A stretch of DNA of 64,000 nt from positions 2,170,001 to 2,234,000 of the forward strand of contig CM030337.1 of the NCBI GenBank assembly GCA_017654855.1, in the 5' to 3' direction. The first letter of the stretch is position 1; every line of letters begins with the position of its first letter. Shown piece after piece: positions 9,794-55,931 of this stretch. Position numbers and translations under genes: made by a program. The DNA comes from Podospora anserina (taxonomy: Eukaryota). The notes below the pieces were generated by a model. It had not been told where the DNA came from, searched no databases, and saw only the letters and a program-made list of their open reading frames with translations.

Positions 9794-12700
9794 AGAGTGA
9801 GGGGAGTGAATGAAGATGACTTTGTACGGATGAAAATCGCCTCAAAGGTTGAAGAGCTTTCCAACTTTTGTACCCACAACTGCCGAGTAGCCTCTGTGGT
9901 TCTTGCCGTGTTTGTGAGTTGGATTAAGTGATCCTCCTTGGCGACTGCGCGGTCAGCTCGCAAGGTTTTACAACGTCCTTCCAACTTGGATATCAGCCCG
10001 ACTAGAGTACCTCTCCTTTATCCACGACAGGAAGCGGCCGGCGACAACACCGACGTAGACAGCCAACCAACACCCCTTTCCAGCCTCCGTCTTCGACATC
10101 ACCATTGATATCCCACTTCCCATTCTAAAACCGAACCCCGCCGGGCAGCAACCGTCACCCTCACTCCCAAGACAAGACCAACCTGTCTTGCCATGTCACT
10201 ATCACACCTCAATCTCGACTTTCCACCAACTTGATATTACACCAACCACCCTCGTCCTCATCCCTGCATCTCTCTCCACATATAGCTACAAACCCAACTC
10301 CCAACAACACACCACCCGTCCCTCCCAAAGAAACCAAAGTCCATCTCCTTCCCACCACCGAGACCCCTCATCCGCTCTACCGACACCAGAAACTCCTCAG
10401 GTAGTTTTGGGGGTCATAGGGGGTTGGGAATCATGTCAAGTATTGGAAGGGAAAACCGGGATGTCGGTGGGGGTCGTTAACGTTGCGTCACATGTCACCA
10501 GGAGGTGCAGTTGCGGTTGGAGTTGGTTGTTTCAAACTGGGGAACGTCGATATGGTACGGGCTGTTCTGATGTAGAAAAGGGTGAGAGGTTTGGTTTTTC
10601 AAGTCTGAATAGGCAAGGTTGCCGAGTTTCATCGAGGCCCATGTTATCTTTGACCATCTCTTGAGGCGTGGGCGGCATCATAATCTGCGTCAAGTCACCT
10701 TGGTGTGTCATGATTGTGTTGCTACTGGATTGAATTGAATAGGTGGGTGCTATAGACACCGGGCTAAGATTTTTGTGCCCGGTGCGAGACTGGTGTTTGA
10801 TATCCAGAGAAGGGCTCTGAGTTGTACAGTGAACTGACCAACGTGGATAAAGTCAACCATTTCCCACATAGATAAACCCACCTGTGTCGTGTCTTGGTTC
10901 AACCTTGCAATAGCCCATCAAGTGACGGGCAACAACACCTCGCAATACCCCTCAGCTTCCTATCCACAATCTCGTTAGAGCATATCCTCCCCAGCTGAAA
11001 TCAAAACCCCCCCCCAACTGCATCAAAAATTCCCTAATTTCTCCCTCTCACGATAGTTTTTTTGCTTCCCTCCAACTTCGTGTTTGCATTCCCAGCTGAC
11101 GTCGTTGCGGCTGTGTAGCCACTAGAACCTTTGCCACCACACCAAGTCGAGGCATATCGTCACTCGCCAAGTCTTCAAGACACAACAGCCCGTGGTTCCG
11201 ATAGGACCGGCAGACCAGGAGAGCAGGAGCTGGCCCCTCATATGTACCTGTATGCAGGTGCTCAACTGACGATAGTTGCTTCAACTTTGGTTTTGCCGAT
11301 CTTATCCGCCGCGGGAAGCCCATTGCCCTGAATACCGAAACCTGAAGGTGTGAAGAGACTGCGCCGCTATGCTGCAGCAGTTAGTTTTCGAACCGGTGCG
11401 TGGCTCATACCAAGCCCACCCACCAACCCAACCCGAAGTGGTGTTGCTACAAAGCTGAAAGGTTATAGTCTCAGGATGTGAGCCACGCGAGTTTCCAGAA
11501 TAGCGGTTAGATTGCCGATCCTTTCTCGAATGTCACGTCTAGAATGAAACCCTCGATGGCCAAATGCGGGTGAGCTGGAAGTGACCATTGCTTGGTTTCA
11601 AGCTCGAGACATATGGGCGGTGCCGCAGTGCTGCTGTTGCATATGGTACCATAAGCAGTATAGATTGGACGAGATGGCGGTGAGTCGGTGCTCAGTGGGT
11701 TTTATTTTCTCTTGTCTGTTGTTTTTTTGACTGCGCCGTTGAGGAAATACAACGCCTACACAAGGTCCCTGCTGGGAATGAAGCTTTGGCCAAGGAAGAG
11801 ACAACAAGTGGGATGGGGTTGGAGATGGTGAGGAACCAACGAGATAGATGGTTGCCCATTTTTGTCCGTTCTTGCTGCGCTGGCAAACATGCATAGACTG
11901 CGCCATGGGGTCGCGCAAGATTCGGCCAGTGGCCGGAATGACGATGTGGAATGACATAGCGAGATGTTGACGAGAAAACGGGCGATTCTTTGGATGAGTT
12001 GTCTGATTGAAGAAGTCCTTATCGTGTAAGTGATAAGGGTGGGGTTAGGGTTGGCGACAGGAAGACCAACCCGCATGAAATGGGCTGCTGCATGAGAAGG
12101 TCTCTTGCTCATCACGCTCGGTCTGGGTTCTCCGGGAGTTTTGTTGATGTACTCGCTCGAACCATTCCTAGGTTCATCCATGCTGTCTACAACTTTTACA
12201 GTTCATGCCGGACGGGATGTCGTTGTTGCAGAAAGAGCTGTTTGAGCTGGCCCCCAGATGCTATGCCCTGGCGATCAGTCGGTAGCGACCGCCGTCTGAG
12301 AGACCCTCTTCCCATCCGTTGTCAGCAAAATCTGGAGAAGGAGCTCGGCAAGCGTCAGATGCGAGAAGGCGGCGCTGCTCGAGCTCATGATGTGAAGTCG
12401 TACAAGCTCCGAGGTGTTCGGAGGAGGGACGGGAGGGGTGCAGGGTGGATCCTCAGAGTGAAACAAGAGATATGCCCCTCTCATCTTCCAAAAATATCAG
12501 ATGCTAGCGGCATTCACACCAGACTATCACACTGTATCTACATCATTATTTTCACCGAAAAGACATCAAAGCCTTTTTGAATCAGAGTCACGAGATGCAC
12601 CATCTCGCCCCACTGCAACTTCAAGGGTAGCTTACTTCTTCAGCTGCTGCACCGCTGCCAGGAATTTTTAAGGGTTCTCATGGCGGCTTCCTGCACGATC

Positions 12701-46359: not shown

Positions 46360-48217
46360 TCAGCCCTTTATCCCCCCATCCCCCGTACTATCAACAACAA
46401 TGTCATCACGCTCAGTCGGTCGCCGTTGAGCCTTCACAACCCCCGCCTTCCCAATAACCCCGGACCCCCGAAAAGCTACCAAAACAACCACAAATGCCGC
46501 ACACCCCAACGCAAAATTCCACCACTCCGCTGCTCGCAGACCCGCGAGCGAAGCCGAGTCCCAAGGAATCACCGGCCCAGCCTCCTCGACATCAACCCCT
46601 CTATCATGCGCCATAACAGCCGTCTGAATCGCCGTCGCGACAGCCAAACCGATAGCCCTTCCCACCTGACCCATGGCATTAACCAAAGCCCCCCCCAAAG
46701 CCTGATCCGACTGAGGTAACGAATGGCTCGTAAACAAAATCAAAGACGGCCACGTAGTATCAGCTCCAAAAACCGACAAGACCATAGCCGGGAACCCATA
46801 AGCCCAATACGTCGTCTCTGGCGGAATCGGAGCAGCAAAGAGTATCGACGATATCGACACGCAAAACGTCCCCACCGCCAAAAGCAGGTAAGTCGGCACC
46901 CGCGCCAAAAGCTGGCTGACAACCAGCGCGGTGATGACCCCCATGATCCCCGTCGGCAGAAACCTCAAGGTCGTCTGCAACGTCGACAGGCCCTGAAAGT
47001 CCTGGTAAAAATACGTGGCATAAACCAGCAACCCATTGAAACTGCTGAAAAAGAGCGCCATGATCGCCATGGCAGCGCTGAATTTCGTGCTGTGAAAGAC
47101 CGAAACCTTCATGATCGGCGCGCGTTTCTTCGTCTTTTCCAGATGTCTCTGCCAAAACACAAACAACGTTACCAAGATAACCGAAACCACAATCAACACC
47201 GGTATCCACGGCGTCCTCCACCCAACTACATTTCCTTGTGTCAAGGCAAAAAGCAACGCCAGCAAGCCCACGGTAACCAACCCAGCCCCCAACCAGTCAA
47301 CCGAATTCTTCACCGTGACCCCCTCATCATGCAAAGTGTGATTCGGCGCCGGCAGGATAAAAAACGCCGCCACAGTCACAATGACAGCCAACAAACCCAT
47401 AATGACAAAAACCCATTTCCATGAGGTGTACTCCGAGACAAAGCCCGCGAGCAAATTCCCAAACACCGCTCCCACAGGGGCACCTGCTGAGTAACAACTA
47501 AAAGCATAGTTTTTCGCTTTGCCAGGTCGAAAGGTAGTTCCTAGGATTCCAATCGCCGTTGGAACGTTGGCTGCCGCACCCTGTAGACAAATGTTAGCAT
47601 GACTAGGCGGTAATTTCACCCATTGTTCAACCTACAAGCCCAGAAAGACCACGAAACAAATCAAAGGCGATTTCGTTTGGTAAAAAGGGATTCACCAGCA
47701 TGGTCATGGCGAACCAGGCCGAGCCAAAGATGAACATCCTTCTCTTGCCGTAGATGTCAGCTATCCTGCCCCAGAGGAGGAGGAAGCAGCCAAAGGTGAG
47801 GGAGTAGGCCGAGACGATCCATTGGAGGCGGGTGTCGGGGATGGAAAGGTCGCGGCCTATGGTTGGGAGGATGATGACCACTGCTTGGCCGGAGAGGGTC
47901 TATTTTAGTCGTTAGTTGTCAAGTCTGTGCATAGGTAGTGAAGGGAAGACGCGTACGTTGAGAAAACTCGCGCCTGTGACGGTAGCCACGAGGGCGATAC
48001 ATCGCGCTTTTGAGAACGGCAAGTCCGATTTGGGCGGTTCATCGTCGTCGTGTGGTATTTCTTGGGCGACGTTGGTGGTGTCGGTGAGCTCATCGCTTAA
48101 CTCCGAGTCATCCCCTTCCGATCTCGCTTGGATTCTCTCACGGGCCGACGATGCTGATGCTGACGCCGACTGCCGGTGCGGAGAGATCTTGTCATGGTCA
48201 ACTGCCGGTGTTGCCAT
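46360..48217 (-). CDS. MFS drug/metabolite:H+ antiporter (DHA2/Atr1-like)
   Basis: Exons 48217-47957, 47899-47636, 47580-46360. WIVSAYSLTFGCFLLLWGRIADIYGKRRMF (MFS motif A), WKWVF, VDWLGAGL and many hydrophobic helices. Confidence 0.92.
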
Positions 48218-49587
48218 TGTTACGCAGGCGGCTCACACTCCAATTTTTTATTTTTATTTTTGGGTGGAAAGGAAAAGCAACAATGGTGTTGTGATGAAGC
48301 GGATGGAAATATTTATTTTTTGAATTTGAGTTGAGGTAAACGATATCCTGCCGGCCCCACCGGCTCGGTTGGGGATAGCGCGGGTGTATGGGCCATCACG
48401 ACATAAGGTAAGGTACGGTACATGGCTCCTTCCCGAGTAGTAGTAAGATTTGGTCTGTGGGTTTGGAGGGGACGGGAGGAGGGAAAAGATGGGCGGCGGA
48501 ATGTGGGACTCCGGAAATATCTTGGTGATGCCGGAACTGGGAGTGTCAGTGTGGCATGGGGATTTGACATGTTTTGGGTGAACTTGGCATGCAGGTAGGT
48601 CTCAGTCAGAAGATTCTGCTTATGATCGCTACCTTCCCTTGCTTGGAGTTGTAGCGAGGCTTTGAAATGAGATGAAGGGGTGGGGGCTGCTTTTCATGAT
48701 GTTTCTTTCTCGACTTTCTTCGCTGTGATGACCTTGCAATGATAGATAATTCGGTACTTTGCAAAAACAGCTTGATTTGATGGTCTCATCAAAAGGCCCA
48801 GTAAGATCATATCAATCGCTATGTTTCTATTGCTGACATGCTTGATTCTCTCGAGTCATTATTGTCATGCAGCACACCTACTCAAGAATGCAATGACTTT
48901 ACAAAACCACCATTGCATCGATGAGTTGTTTATTGCAACTATGATATTTGACCAACCACAGCCATATGACTTGCACACTGCTTTTAATCTCTTTGTACCT
49001 AGTCAGAGCAACCTGAAAAGTTGCAGTCTCTCACTCAAGTCAAACAAACGTTTGGTCAGACCAAGCTGCTGAGTCCAGCCCATTGTAACAGACAGAGCCT
49101 TTGTCAATTCACAAGACATCAACGTAAAAACAATGACTGGTCTTGGTCACCAAGGAAAATAACAAGAGCCCCTTGGAAGCGCGTCGCAATGTTGACAACC
49201 ACTATGCTTCTTTGTGTCCTTCATCAGTCAACAAGCTGGCAGTGCCTCAAGGGGCAGTTTGGCTTTCAAAGGACACTGTAGGCCCGACAGCGTCAAGCAA
49301 GCGCACACCCAAATGCTGAAATATTTGGACATATATAAGCTTGCTTGACACATAGCCATCCCATCACCAAAATTTCATCCCTTATCGGTTCTACTTTACT
49401 CGACAAGCTCACATCAGGAACTGTTTTGCCTCATCCTGACTCGATCCATCCCGCCTGTCTTCATACTCGTCGTCACTCTTCACTCCAGCCAACTTCATAG
49501 GTACTTCATCTCACTCCAGCCCACTTTATACTCCATCTCACTCCAAGCATAGTCTTAGGTTTGACATCAGTCTTGAACTCAGTCAAC

Positions 49588-52266
49588 ATGTCTTCCTCAG
49601 AGAATAATCATGTCTCTCGGACTCCAGACACCGAAGGAGACTTCAGCTCTCCCAACTCGTTTGTCTATGTCCGTACACCTATGGCGACAATCAGCAACAA
49701 CACAGGGCTCAAGTCAACAGTCCACACTACCTCCGTTGACGAGAAGGACTCTTCCCATCAAGAGGGTCAGCAACGCCAGTACCAAGAACAGCGTCAACAT
49801 CAGTATCAACAGCAGTATCAACCGCGGTATCGCCAGTCCAGCTATGCCAGCAGTCGCAGCAGTCTTGCCAATGAAGTCATCTTCGACCATGAAGACTCCC
49901 CTCCTCCGCTGAAAGACAACAACGGTCCCTTTCACCCTGCTAGCCCCTATGCCAAAGATGATCAAAGCCATGGCCTGGGCATCAACGCCGAAGAAAGCTG
50001 CCTGCATCAAGAACAGCGAGGCACACGAACAGTCTCCAGCCCAGTAGGCACAAGCGGCAAGTACGGCAAGACCACAGAACAACCCCTCGCTGGGGTGAAC
50101 TGGCGAGACCGCAGCGTGAGCTATGGTGACAGCTACGGGGGACGGTGGTCTTCCAACCTACGGGGGTCAGCTGCCAGTGAGAGCTATGGCCCAAACAGGT
50201 TCTACCCCCCCGGTTACTACTTCTCTCCTGCGAACCGTTGGAATCCAAGCTTCCGCTCTTACAAGTCGTCAGCGAGCACCGATCTTCTTGCCAGCCTCAC
50301 AAGCAACGCCAGAAAAGCCCCTTTCGCTGCACAACCTTCTTTGACAAACCGATTCAACGTGTTCCAGACGTTGAACAACAATAACAACAACAACAACAAC
50401 AACAACAATAACAACAACAACAACAACCAGACCGACGAGAACGACGAAAAGATGTCGCACTGTGACAACAAGTCCGAAACCTTCGGCGTTGTCGGAGACG
50501 GCCGCTTCGGCGCCAGACCCACTCCCGCTGCCCCCGCCCCGCCTGTCCTCACCTCCATCGGCGCCTCCGGCTTTGCCTCAGGCAGGATGATGAGTCACCC
50601 CGGCGGGAACGACTCTGGAATCCCGGGCTTTGCCCAACACCCACCCTCCGGCCCCGCCTACCACCCGGACGCCCTCTCCTCCCAGCTCCGGTCCTTGTCC
50701 TTCCACTCCGGCGCCGCCACCGCCGTCCAAGCTCCTGGCCCCTTTTCCGCTGCCCAGCAGCACCCCTTCCCGGGCCAGCAGCGCCCCTTTTTCCCTCAGC
50801 CTGCCGCCGCCCCCTTGTTTCCCGCTGGCTTTCGCCCCCTCGCGTCCGTCCCCGAGACCGCCGTCGTCCGAGCTGGTCCCTCCTCCTCCAGTGCCCTCGT
50901 CCCAGCCCCTGGGCAGCCCTTTTTCTTCCGGCCGATGGAGTGCCGCACCCACCGCCGCCTGACCGAACTCGAGTCTTACGACTTGATGATCAAGGGGTTC
51001 AGCCCCAACTACAAGGGGAACCCGGACCTGGACCGGAACCGGAGCGCGACCATCCCCGAGGACATGAACTGTTCTCTCTTCCTGGTGGGCTTGCCCGCCG
51101 ATGTGACGACCCACGAGCTGCTTGCTGGGGTGAGGAACGTGGGGCGGGTGTACGCCACCCACATCAACCCCCCTGAGCCGGAGAAGGGCCACGAGCAGAG
51201 CGCGGCCAAGATTGTGTTTTTTGAGAGGAGTGCTGCCGGTACGTGTTCATTCCCTTCCCCTTTTCTTCATATGCATCCGAGCATTCCCACCACGCCTCAG
51301 AAAGTTCTGAGTAGGCCTTCCAAAAGTTTGGATGGGCCTGTTGACCATCTTTTTATGCCTTTTGAGCTATCGAATAGGCATATCATGCTGTCAAATAGGC
51401 CTTCCAAACTCTTGGATATGCCTTCAAGATATCTTCAGACCCCTTCCCACTATCCTGAGACGCCTCTTGGCCATCTTTTTCGGCCTATTGAACTCTCGAA
51501 TAGGCGTAAAAGATGAGTTGGCACGCCTTCAAAACTCTTTGACAGGCCTCTCAAACCCCTTTTGACGCATGCAACGTTCTTCTAAACGCATGAAATCAGA
51601 AAGCTAACCCACCCTTCCCACCAGAACGCTTCTTCCGCCAAACCACAACCCAGGGCTTCCGCATCCCAACCCGCGCTCCTCCCCACAACCCAGCCCGCGT
51701 GACCTGGAACCGCATCCGGTCCGCCGAAGTCGACATCAACGGCTCAAAGTCTCGCGTCCTCCTCATCTCCGGACCCCCCCACATCGTCAACGAGCAGCAC
51801 CTCCGCGAGTACTTCGACAACAAGCTCATCTACCAAGTCGACGAGATCATCGTCCACCACCCCGGCGCCGTCCCTGCCGCCTTGCCCGCTCCCCCCGGTT
51901 CCTCTGCTGCCAATCCCTCGACAGGCAACCTCTCTAGCTCTGGTGGTCCCCGCACCCCAGCCGGCCTATTGGCCTATAACGACGTCCCTTCCGGCGCTCC
52001 CGTTGCCAGCCACAGCAACACCTCTTCCAGCTCGGGCGGTGTTCCCACCGGTTATAACAATAACAATTCTTCTTCCTCCTCGGGTCTCGCCCCCAATGTC
52101 AATGTTGCCGGCCACAGCAACATCCCCCTCGCCGCCGGTCCTCTCATCCTCGGCAACAACGACAACAACGACAACAACGACAACAACGACAACAACGACA
52201 ACAACGACAACAACGACAACAACGACAACAACGACAACAACGACAACAACGACAACAACGACAACG

Positions 52267-52305
<39 letters not shown>

Positions 52306-52859
52306 GTGGCGCCAGCGGCTTCAGCCCCGGCCACTCCAAGTCCGCCTCCAGCATCAGCTCCGGAGGCCACAGACCCAGCTCTCTCCTGGGCCAGCTCAAG
52401 GGCGATAGAGCCCTCATCGAGTTCCGCTTCGGCAGTTACCGCTGCCAGTCCGAGGCCGCCCGCATGGCTCTCGTGAGAGAGTTTAGGGAGTTTGGGGTCT
52501 TGTGCGAGTTTGGGAGGGATCCTTGTGATCGTGTGGAGGAGAAGGAGGAAGGAAACGGGAAGGGGAGAGAGGAGGAGCAGCAGGTGGAGGTTTATTTGGG
52601 TGGTGGTGGAGATGGTTGTGAGGACCACCACCCTTTCTGGAGGGGAGGAGAAGCTGGGATGGGTGGTGGTGCGTTTGCCGGCGGTGCTGGTGTTGGGGGT
52701 GATGCGTTTGCTGGCGGCGAGGGTGGCTTCGGCTCCGTGTTCACTCCGGGTGCGGGCGCGCACCTGTCCGCGACGACCTCGGCTGGGAGTTACTTCCAGT
52801 CGCGGGCTCAGAGCGACAGCGTGCGCGCCCTGTGGGGTGATGCTCGTGAGGGGGCGTGA
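49588..52859 (+). CDS. RRM-like RNA-binding protein with Asn-rich low-complexity regions
   Basis: Exons 49588-51238 and 51625-52859 (GTACGT..GCTAAC..CAG). RRM-like segment [57 protein letters not shown], then a second fold [34 protein letters not shown]. Confidence 0.8.
50374..50427 (+). repeat. Coding (AAC/AAT)18 poly-Asn tract
   Basis: 18 consecutive Asn codons in exon 1 of the RRM-like gene. Confidence 0.95.
51271..51606. repeat. Degenerate 21-nt tandem repeat (~16 units) inside the intron
   Basis: Units start every 21 nt with an ANGC(C/A)T-like hexamer: atgcat 51271, acgcct 51292, aggcct 51313, gggcct 51334, atgcct 51355, aggcat 51376, aggcct 51397, atgcct 51418, acccct 51439, acgcct 51460, cggcct 51481, aggcgt 51502, acgcct 51523, aggcct 51544, acgcat 51565, acgcat 51586. 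Confidence 0.85.
52155..52304 (+). repeat. Coding (AACAACGAC)12 + (AAC)n repeat encoding (NND)12-ND-N12
   Basis: Perfect 9-nt tandem array followed by an AAC run in exon 2 of the RRM-like gene. Confidence 0.95.
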
Positions 52860-54181
52860 GGGGAAGTTTGAGTTTTCGGGGAGGATTCTGTTTCGGGTTT
52901 TTTTTTGTTTGGGTTTTTTTGTTTGTTTTTTTCTTCTCTGCGATGGCAGACGGCTTCCTGAGTTTGGAGTTGGGGTGAGAAAATGGTCGGGGGGGTTTTG
53001 TGGTCTCGCCGGGAAATACTAATGTTGCGCCAATTGGCGCGTTAATATCTTTTTGTTTTTTCCTTTTGTTCATGAAGAATGGCATCTGGAGATGGGGTCA
53101 GGAAATAAATAGCATTGCAACTGTGGGAATACCAAGACTTTTCGGACATCAAGAATATGGACTGCTGTGACTGTGGTTTGTGATGGTCGTGATGTTCGTG
53201 ATGCTCTTCAACATGCAATGTTCTATTACGGCATTGAGAACAACTGACAGAATATGACCCGTCCACATACATTATGATCAGGTTGCATTGACACTGAAGC
53301 AGACATATTGCGGATGGTGATACTGCGATATTGATGGAGCATTGCACAGATGAAGTCTCATCAACCCTAACCCAGCAGCAATAAGGCAGTACAGGGTGGG
53401 GCATGGCGTTCCAGATCTTCGGGAGTGATCTTGGCACAGTGACGTCATGGGTCTTTCATGATGCCATCACCCAACTAAAGGATGGTATCTCGCGAGACGC
53501 GGGTTCATTGATGGCAGCTCGTTGGTCCAACGTGGAAGAGAGTCAAGTAAATCCTCTGATATTGTGTCACCGGGGCCAATCACAGGCAGCCACTGCCCTC
53601 AAACACACGCGTTCTGTTGGCGAGCAGCCACGGCAACCCCCCACCTCGACGCCGGTGAACGACGACAGCCATTCGCCCCTCCCCTTGTAGCCTTCATTAC
53701 GTCACAGCGGAGAAATATGTCCTTCAACGGCGGCACTGGGCGGCCAGCATGTGAGAATTCCTTTCCCACTCATGTCGGTACGAGGTGAGCAGCTACTTCC
53801 AGCTGATTCTTTGAGCAGCCAGCAGTAACTCCCAGTGTCCCCAGCTGGCAGATCATTGCTCCCCTGCCAAAAAAAACAAGCAAAGGTAAAACCCACTTAA
53901 AGCTAGATTAGGTAGCAGTGACGTCTTGGACTCTTTCTTTCACAGACCCACAAACAAACCAACAGTGAACGTCTGGAACCGACCCTCCAACGTCCGCCAA
54001 TATACTGCGCTTTGCACCTTCAACTTCCTCCTTCTCTCCTCTTCCTCTCCATACCAATTTGATACCCAACCCCCATCACCAACCGCGATATTTTCCTCAG
54101 CCAGCAAAGAGGCATCTCCTTTCCCGCCTTACACATCCTACAACTACAACATCTTGCTGAAGAAAAAATAACACCATCATC

Positions 54182-55931
54182 ATGAGGATCGCCAAAGCGC
54201 TCCTATCGTTGGCCCTCGTGGCTGACGCAGCTATCGCTAGCTCTTGGTTTTCCAATGCTGGTAAGCCATGACTTGTGTTTTTTCTCGACTTCTCCAGCTC
54301 ATTATTAACAAGATCTGCAGCCTACAACAAGTGGCACGAGACTGAGCTTGAGCGTTGGCTCTCCGACCACGATGTCCCCTATCCCACTCCTGCCGACCGC
54401 AAGGATCTCGAGAAGCTTGTCCAGAAGAACTGGGAGTCACATGTCGTAACACCATACAACAGCTGGGACGCTGCCCAGCTTGATAGCTATCTCAAGCAGA
54501 AGGGTGTCGAGACCAAGGATTCCGCCCAGGCCAGCCGCGATTCTCTCGTCAGCCAGGTGAAGGGCTACTGGTACGAGACGGAGGACAAGGCTCAAACCGC
54601 CTGGACCAATGTCAAGGACTGGATTCTGGACAGCTGGACCGACAGCCAGCTCAAGGCCTTCTGCGATCGTCATGGTATTCCTGGTAAGTTGACATGACGC
54701 CATGTCTTGAATGTTTGAGGCGTCGACTAACACCGCCATAGTTCCCCAACCCCGCACCCGTGATACTCTCCTTCAGAAGGCTAGGGTCGCTTACGAAACC
54801 GCTGCTCAAAAGGCCGGTGAGACTGCTGCCTACCCTGGCAACTGGTTGTACGAGACCTGGTCCGATTCTGATCTCAAGGAGTGGCTTGATACCCATGGCA
54901 TCCCGGCTCCTCAACCTACCACCCGCGACAAGCTCATTGCCTCTGTCCGCCGCAACTCTCGACTTGCCTCGCTTCGAATGCAGGAGCAGAAGGCTGCTGC
55001 TCAGAAGAAGGCTCAGGAAGCTTATGCCACCCTCACTGACAAGGTTATTGACGCCTGGAGCGAGTCTCAGCTGAAGGAGTTCTGCGACAAGAATAGCATC
55101 CCCGTTCCTCAAGGTACCAAGCTCAACCAGCTCCGCTCTCTTGTCCGCAAGCACCGCGCTGAGATCATGGGTGACACTGTTGCCTCAACCGCTGCCTCCG
55201 CCTATGGCGCTGCTACTTCCAACGTTGGCGAGAACGTTGCCAAGGCTACTGATGCCACTTCCCAGGCCGCTCTGGATGCCTTCAACGCTGCCGTCAACAC
55301 CTGGTCTGAGAGCCGTCTCAAGGGCTACCTTGACGCCCGTGGAGTCCCCGTTCCTCAGGGATCCAAGACTGATGAGCTTCGTGCGCTCGTACGCAAGCAT
55401 GCCCACAAGGCTGCTACCGGCTGGAGCGCCTGGACCTGGGACGATCTGACCCTCGACAACCTCAAGGCCTACCTCGCTTCCTCTGGAGACGCTGCGGCGA
55501 AGAAGGCTGGTGAGAAGGCTGGCGCTACTCGCGAGGAGCTTGTCCAGGCTGCCAACGCTGCCTACGCCTCTGCTTCTTCTGCCGGTGGTAACTCCTTTGC
55601 CTCTGCTACTAGCTACCTTTCTCATGCCACCGACAATGCCAAGGCTGCTACCTTTGATACCTGGAGCGAGAGTGATCTCAAGGCCTACTTGGACAGCTAT
55701 GGCATTCCCGTCCCTCAGGGTTCAACTCTCAATGAGATCCGTGCCCTTGCTCGTCGCCAGTGGACTTACTACAAGTACGGCACCTCGTCTCCTTCCGAGA
55801 CCATCTTCGCTAAGATCAAGGAAAACGTCTTGAGCGGCTGGGACTGGGTCACCGGTCAGGTCATGGCTGGCTCTGATGCCGCCAAGAAGAAGGCTGAGGA
55901 GGGCCGTGCCAAGGCGCATAAGGAGCTCTAA
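54182..55931 (+). CDS. ish1: Ish1/Msc1-family stress-responsive nuclear envelope/ER lumen protein
   Basis: Exons 54182-54260, 54321-54683, 54742-55931. Signal peptide; many Ish1 repeats (WHETELERWLSDHDVP, WTDSQLKAFCDRHGIP, WSDSDLKEWLDTHGIP, WSESQLKEFCDKNSIP, WSESRLKGYLDARGVP, WSESDLKAYLDSYGIP); KDEL-like C-terminal HKEL; strong codon bias. Confidence 0.9.

Follow-up and report, generated by a model that had tools for sequence, protein, structure and literature searches.

A phased 21-bp quasi-palindromic array in an intron of Podospora anserina and its relatives in a dispersed, transposon-associated repeat family

A 386-nt intron of Podospora anserina, lying within a gene for a protein with an RRM-like region, is filled almost entirely by a degenerate repeat of 21-nt units. 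The intron was examined in a 64,000-nt stretch of the genome (assembly GCA_017654855.1, contig CM030337.1, positions 2,170,001 to 2,234,000 of the forward strand), which is referred to here as the window and in whose numbering positions are given. With a probability slightly above one half (about 0.52), the array is interpreted as an old and end-less copy belonging to a family of quasi-palindromic 21-bp DNA arrays that are scattered through the genome. It would be a transposon-borne array of binding sites, and its module also makes up the interiors of three families of miniature inverted-repeat transposable elements (MITEs), named M1, M2 and M3. What appeared to be a one-off coding oddity thus belongs with a genome-wide repeat system in a model fungus.

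An initial sequence-only reading had described about 16 degenerate 21-nt units free of indels, and 16 recognisable cores were indeed found in strict phase between 51271 and 51606. Lag-21 identity within the intron is 0.474, where 500 dinucleotide shuffles gave 0.26 (z 8.8). Multiples of 21 account for each of the seven strongest lags, and z never rose above 4.2 in the shuffles, so that the periodicity is significant against shuffled sequence. The higher-order structure reported earlier was recovered, the units at 51334 and 51460 agreeing at 17/21 positions and those at 51355 and 51481 at 16/21. The three units singled out as alike, at 51313, 51397 and 51523, share 18/21 (51313/51397), 17/21 (51397/51523) and 14/21 (51313/51523) bases. 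Dyads recur at intervals of 10.5 nt along the quasi-palindromic units; the core, which is AGGCCT or a variant of it, is nearly invariant, and the cores lie two helical turns apart. Counted over 17 slots, the core columns hold A 14, G 15, C 17 and T 17 times, and spacer columns are near 50%. A three-core pattern matched ten times in the 64-kb window, always within this intron (0.07 matches expected). The head-to-tail arrangement of units of 10-60 bp is that of a minisatellite, but the units are not homogenised: most pairs share 6-13/21 bases, and Tandem Repeats Finder, which had been put forward as a means of confirming the period, missed the array apart from a weak 22-mer at 51518-51562. No indel was present in the array across four sequencing runs; these consist of assembled contigs whose RNA origin is a guess, and DNA may be among them. 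The corresponding tail of P0001, a near-identical protein that reads through the intron, is equally long.

Relatives of the array are dispersed throughout the genome. In a BLAST-type search of the genome the intron as query matched only itself, and a pattern of phased cores was needed to reveal the relatives. With four cores set in 21-bp phase, such a pattern matched 66 + 49 times on the two strands of the genome, against none for the reversed-pattern control, and a five-core pattern with one mismatch allowed matched 87 + 77 times, against one for the control. Many of these arrays lie within miniature inverted-repeat elements, and the same unit is present in M1, M2 and M3. M1 ends begin CACCCT (49 + 49 matches to the end motif, control 0); in the 20 copies examined, M1 is 152-278 bp long and is flanked by a 5-bp target duplication, of 58% GC, that is exact in 11 copies and has at most one mismatch in 15, compared with 0.26% in a cross-pair control. 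M2 ends begin CACGT (22 + 23 matches), with a 5-bp target duplication exact in 7/18 copies and within one mismatch in 11/18. M3 ends begin GAGAG (24 + 25 matches) and have a more weakly supported target duplication of about 8 bp (exact in 2/8, at most two mismatches in 4/8). Median lengths of M1, M2 and M3, all non-coding, are 231, 232 and 362 bp, with a range of approximately 130-460 bp and 98, 45 and 49 end matches, respectively. By definition, the three families are MITEs in every respect other than a known partner.

The units of the intron are homologous to the interiors of these elements. Compared with the M1, M2 and M3 profiles, the intron gave E values of 7.8e-7, 4.2e-6 and 5.9e-7, the match always falling in the interior, and its 15 spacers alone, with the cores excluded, beat all 5000 shuffles against the M1 spacer matrix. 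Loci L061, L084, L091, L153 and L154 form a decay series in which partial M2 ends are retained, and a 457-bp M1 copy (L092) holds a long array within intact ends. In M2 copies chosen by their ends (n = 18), identity to the consensus is 81.5% at core positions 1, 3, 4 and 6, 67.1% in spacers and 60.7% in arms. The signature of repeat-induced point mutation (RIP), expressed as TpA/ApT, is marked in MITE spacers (0.95-1.96) and unmarked in the intron (0.25) and in 138 end-less spacers (0.56).

The intron occupies an old position, as judged from protein models of orthologs that run off at the same codon; 25 of 73 homologs were picked as doing so, one of them doubtful. The closest named orthologs are those of Cercophora samala (97% over the conserved region) and Triangularia verruculosa (92%), and the gene models of both extend exon 1 into the intron array in the same frame, for 39 and 42 codons. 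Their read-through matches the tail in the window at a level reached by 0/1000 shuffles for C. samala (P0002) and 3/1000 for T. verruculosa (P0003); of 16 other orthologs, two gave p < 0.05 (0.036 and 0.011). Judged by this protein read-through, the array is common to C. samala and T. verruculosa and is older than the species. Six orthologs read through in frame for only 16-35 codons at the intron position, which suggests short introns there, and one paralog of the host gene in the same genome has no intron at the corresponding place.

On sequence grounds, docking by a protein, insertion at this site and any function can be proposed as follows. Each unit would be a docking site, with a palindromic core and a GATAG-type spacer recurring every two helical turns. 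Subterminal repeats of transposons serve transposase binding, and by analogy proteins bound to the array would be aligned on one face of the DNA. Selection on mobile copies may have kept core and phase while the spacers drifted, which would give heavy substitution without indels. One element would have inserted into an already existing short intron before the lineages of C. samala and T. verruculosa split off, grown through the duplication of blocks of units and then lost its ends; the copy would have stayed below RIP detection, and splicing would remove it. The heptad peptide encoded in the array and its predicted hairpins would both be by-products of the DNA repeat. Among the options raised by the initial reading, that of a phased array of binding sites fits best, though at the level of DNA and within a transposon-associated family; the binding itself is predicted.

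Several observations weigh against this interpretation. A terminal-repeat remnant was not found near the intron, where the best matches to the ends of M1-M3 reached 13-15/28 positions, the chance level, and an origin by insertion is accordingly proposed rather than demonstrated. The age of the array is read from proteins, and no autonomous partner was found, three Mutator-like (MULE) and two hAT loci carrying none of the M1-M3 ends. The higher identity of the cores among M2 copies is partly an effect of anchoring the alignment. The 21-bp module occurs with two end types that differ in duplication length and is thus not tied to one transposase. Finally, some end-less arrays lie flush with start or stop codons, with no room for a terminal repeat, and show a polarity that depends on position; neither feature is predicted by passive decay. 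Among 25 end-less arrays, collected by patterns demanding intact cores, seven are inside a long open reading frame (ORF) or no more than 30 nt from its stop, compared with one of 46 MITEs (p 0.002, post hoc; L084 and L091, which have partial ends, were excluded from both sets) and with a baseline of 0.5% of non-ORF positions.

The boundary pattern is a hint that end-less arrays are used by the host, either as elements co-opted from MITEs or as older ones that two unrelated end types took up. In introns and at gene boundaries, a positioned nucleosome or a host protein would read the 21/10.5-bp pattern; cores and phase would be kept by selection, and deletions would remove the DNA between array and exon. 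Five of the seven boundary cases look like gene ends (three with Pfam support), while the others are an intron read-through stop (L072) and a coding case (L065), which dilute the pattern. In several boundary arrays the stop codon overlaps or touches a core. On the sense strand, AGGC[GA]T and A[CT]GCCT occur 29 times and once, respectively, in six 3' arrays, and once and 14 times in three 5' arrays, a reversal that may instead follow local G/C skew (+0.105 after stops generally) or the orientation of insertion. Two genes have arrays at both ends in mirror orientation, one at L071 (1508-1700 and 4023-4290) and one at L070/L151 (L151: 330-400 and 2050-2350). Five further loci served as a check. 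Two of them were M2 copies whose ends had decayed, another was the second half of an array into which a pogo-type transposon had inserted, the fourth was an intergenic array and the fifth lies at UTP10. Three of these are end-less; two of the three do not clearly abut a gene, whereas the third (L157:1538-1727; G000:C8, about 1237440-1237630) stops approximately 15 nt before the UTP10 ATG in the divergent NOC3-UTP10 promoter and has the predicted polarity. Two other hosts of arrays are AAA ATPases, which we take to be AFG2-like and RIX7-like.

Further support for a use by the host comes from the cores themselves. Core position 2 is variable in 9/16 intron units and position 3 in 1/16 (p 0.006), although position-2 variants are already present in MITE units. 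Dinucleotides of the AA/TT/TA and of the G/C kind each show a 10.5-bp peak, the two in opposite phase, a signal that follows from the symmetry of a palindromic 21-mer and is not independent. The orthologous introns of three species still hold the array. As all of these are patterns in sequence, and as the end-less set was itself gathered through intact cores, use by the host, the main rival to the reading as a relic, is regarded as possible but tentative.

The initial reading had also pointed to the coding potential of the array, and both frames read as it had written them: the plus-strand frame is open for 92 codons to the stop at 51514-51516, and the minus strand gives charged heptads broken by stops. 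Retention of the intron, or use of an internal donor, might yield a selected protein isoform in which a 7-residue xP repeat replaces the RRM-like region or is inserted into it. The 92 open codons span twelve open units (p 0.037 by spacer shuffling), P0001 keeps both frame and stop, the gene models of C. samala and T. verruculosa enter the array in this frame, and in-frame GT dinucleotides occur at 51311 and 51506. However, ANG CCT is present in every unit and yields xP, so that the heptad is the DNA core in translation. Among 212 sister units there are 68 stops on one strand and 54 on the other (122 in all), though several arrays are open on one strand for 7-10 units. If the tail were selected, codon-level constraint would be expected, and it changes at least as fast as exon 1 (5/92 residues against P0001, compared with 13/540 in the mostly low-complexity exon 1; p 0.16). 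Over 18-35 residues, likeness among the ortholog tails is no more than about 30-60%, and the protein letters of the T. verruculosa model suggest that it leaves the xP frame at the sixth unit. The canonical joint was the only one seen in the run contigs, and P0001 was the sole protein recovered in two protein searches. On this evidence a coding heptad tail is unlikely, and a selected isoform of the kind described very much so.

A second option, that the array is an intronised or antisense relic of a heptad-repeat (coiled-coil) gene, drew on the charged heptads of the minus strand and is largely refuted. Stops break all three minus frames, the units are homologous to non-coding MITE interiors, and neither a domain search nor the two protein searches found a protein family or a homolog beyond P0001. 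The read-through has a practical consequence nevertheless, in that gene predictors read such introns as xP-repeat exons and caution is warranted where they do.

Splicing of the intron was seen in one of the four runs (X16), in which one contig skips exactly these 386 nt; the exons are thereby joined in frame in an ORF of 961 amino acids. Unspliced contigs were present in all four runs and were the sole assembled form in X15 and X17. Retention as such may occur, and could also matter at the level of RNA: stable hairpins might delay splicing, and the retained form, which meets a premature stop after 92 codons, would then lower gene output, or the hairpins might serve as substrates for Dicer or for A-to-I editing. 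Predicted folding of the intron gives -111.5 kcal/mol (z -6.7), and swapping spacer halves weakens folding (z -2.5; 3/150). On the other hand, the opposite strand folds better (-114.5 vs -101.5), shuffling the order of units barely matters (z -1.7), and register-free covariation is not significant (p 0.11 in the intron, 0.88 in 138 sister spacers). No Rfam family matched at threshold for the intron (best E 2) or for five sister loci. A single A>G difference, at 51429, may be an error, a strain difference or editing, and was found in one X16 contig at a depth of 4.2. Given also the uncertain nature of the runs, an action through RNA is considered improbable.

Compared with known systems, M1-M3 resemble MITEs and other non-autonomous terminal-inverted-repeat transposons with subterminal arrays (En/Spm, hAT and Foldback-type) in being short and non-coding, with terminal inverted repeats, target duplications and tens of copies. 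They differ in that a single phased array of palindromic 21-bp units takes up almost all of the interior, in that the module is common to end types with 5-bp and with approximately 8-bp duplications, and in that many arrays, this intron's included, are end-less and abut exons. The periodic An/Tn clusters (PATCs) of Caenorhabditis elegans are periodic anti-silencing or positioning arrays. Like them, the present array consists of helically phased short motifs in introns and near genes; its unit, by contrast, is a G/C-cored palindrome at 21 bp, and it is known here from sequence alone. The introner-like elements or sister stwintrons of the Hypoxylaceae also place a symmetric, hairpin-forming repeated sequence in fungal introns, but they make new intron positions and do so without target duplications, according to the accessible part of that account (PMC8469720). 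As the position of the present intron is old, its array is not an introner, and most members of the array family are not introns.

The ends of M1 and M2 recall a different superfamily. Both begin with CAC and both have 5-bp target duplications, characters that the portion of PMC1131882 available gives for Transib and the second of which it calls unique to Transib among eukaryotic DNA transposons. The same portion reports Transib among fungi in soybean rust only, and the available part of PMC5751038 lists it as absent from fungi. M1 and M2 lack a clear heptamer/nonamer layout, however: compared by eye with the consensus, the CACAATG heptamer of Transib is matched at 4/7 positions in M1 and 5/7 in M2, and the spaced A-rich nonamer is weak; Transib targets are GC-rich, and the M1 duplications stand at 58% GC. 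CAC ends with 5-bp duplications are typical of Transib, and membership of M1 and M2 is not established. Searches with RAG1 (PF12940), Transposase_21, Plavaka and KDZ gave no match and are uninformative, the RAG1 search having been made without a positive-control match. A bolder combination of these observations, which appears rather unlikely at present, would have the array as a DNA module that the host reads and that brackets genes with mirror polarity (in the 5' region, in introns and in the first bases after the stop, several of the hosts being ribosome-biogenesis genes), as the payload shared by two unrelated transposon end types, and would have the CAC, 5-bp families as the footprint of a Transib-like transposase in an ascomycete.

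The repeat library of Podospora lists 16 'Unknown' and three unclassified 'DNA' families for P. anserina, some of a size that would fit M1-M3, in a comparison by names and base counts only and within the accessible part of that source (Westerberg 2024, PMC10787394). No description of the 21-bp array family was found in the literature searched, including term look-ups in the accessible text of PMC2441463 (Espagne 2008), PMC10787394, PMC10936905, PMC8092012 and one preprint, and existing repeat libraries may contain M1-M3. The name 'Marsu', considered for a Podospora repeat, belongs to a Fusarium retroelement in the only paper found.

If the spread of the arrays is passive, it would illustrate clearly how a single internal module can move from one transposon end type to another, with short diverged copies escaping RIP and with CAC, 5-bp ends typical of a superfamily reported absent from fungi. 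If the pattern at gene boundaries holds, the family would make host use of a helically phased array with links to transposons open to test, as the cores in one intron or promoter can be scrambled without touching the protein.

The host gene and the features of its intron are given in Table 1. The intron had been said to split the first RRM-like domain; the intron stands, with GT..AG borders and a spliced joint, while the RRM label is weakly supported by sub-threshold matches (RRM_7, E 0.088; Dead-end RRM, E 0.12) and by UniRef names of orthologs.

Table 1. Features of the host gene and of its intron array, in window positions.
Feature	Position	Strand	Basis or remark
Exon 1, coding part, host gene	49588..51238	+	Long low-complexity N-terminus and first part of conserved RRM-like region; ORF, spliced translation, 73 homologs
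Phase-1 spliceosomal intron, 386 nt	51239..51624	+	GT..AG; spliced joint in run X16; position common to Sordariales orthologs
5' splice donor GTACGT	51239..51244	+	Sequence; joint
Branch-site-like GCTAAC (51603-51608, overlapping the last unit) and acceptor CAG	51603..51624	+	Sequence; use as branch site putative
Exon 2, coding part	51625..52859	+	Rest of conserved region, Asn-rich insertions
Array of 16 in-phase 21-bp quasi-palindromic units, core A[GCT]GC[CGA]T	51271..51606	.	One further degenerate slot at 51250-51270
Two-unit block, copy 1 of 126-nt higher-order duplication	51334..51375	+	
Two-unit block, copy 2 of 126-nt higher-order duplication	51460..51501	+	
Best match to interior of MITE M1 profile	51379..51493	-	E 7.8e-7; no terminal-repeat part matched
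Longest predicted hairpin, 27-nt arms, 78% complementary	51319..51416	+	Probable by-product of palindromic units
Read-through frame if intron retained, 92 codons	51238..51516	+	Ends at TGA 51514-51516

Outside the intron, the host gene contains Asn-codon microsatellites at 50374-50427 and 52154-52304, the first of which is shorter in P0001. A 27-bp tandem duplication lies just upstream of the gene (49480-49545), and there is a marginal match to the M1 arm at 10650-10715 (E 0.043). The neighbouring genes encode an MFS transporter (46360-48232, minus strand) and an Ish1-domain protein (54180-55931, plus strand). In a paralog of the host gene (L027, around 1501-1737), a TAG lies within the conserved match and may mark an intron, a broken gene or a candidate for editing.

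Two phased-core matches (G000:C1:516196-516304 and G000:C6:1154307-1154415) resemble unrelated coding heptad repeats, and a Thr-Pro mucin-like repeat (L069:1416-1583) was removed from the array set as probably unrelated. At L065:1485-1631, five to seven phased cores in the coding linker of a double-AAA ATPase are read as xP heptads and may represent an exonised array or convergence in place. The transposase lying between two arrays at L155 was considered as a partner and rejected, being of pogo type with 44-bp ends of its own and inserted into an array, which must therefore be the older of the two; this broken element (L155:813-2773; HTH_psq, HTH_Tnp_Tc5 and DDE_1 domains, TA at both borders) splits the array. 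A MULE transposase locus at L146:3258-6470 has perfect 47-bp terminal repeats unrelated to those of M1-M3. Unpaired ends (L074, L097, L104, L108, L122 and others) are followed by ordinary flanking DNA and no long elements, and a scan of metagenomes with the M1 end gave one chance match only, on a bacterial-looking contig. A 505-bp element with M1 ends (L093:1009-1513) has an interior that is mostly non-array and partly very AT-rich. In 15 of 20 M1 copies, for example L033:1410-1666, a donor-like GTRRGT occurs 21-70 nt inside each end; a motif resembling a branch site plus acceptor is present in 4/20, and such copies might be spliced out of transcripts.

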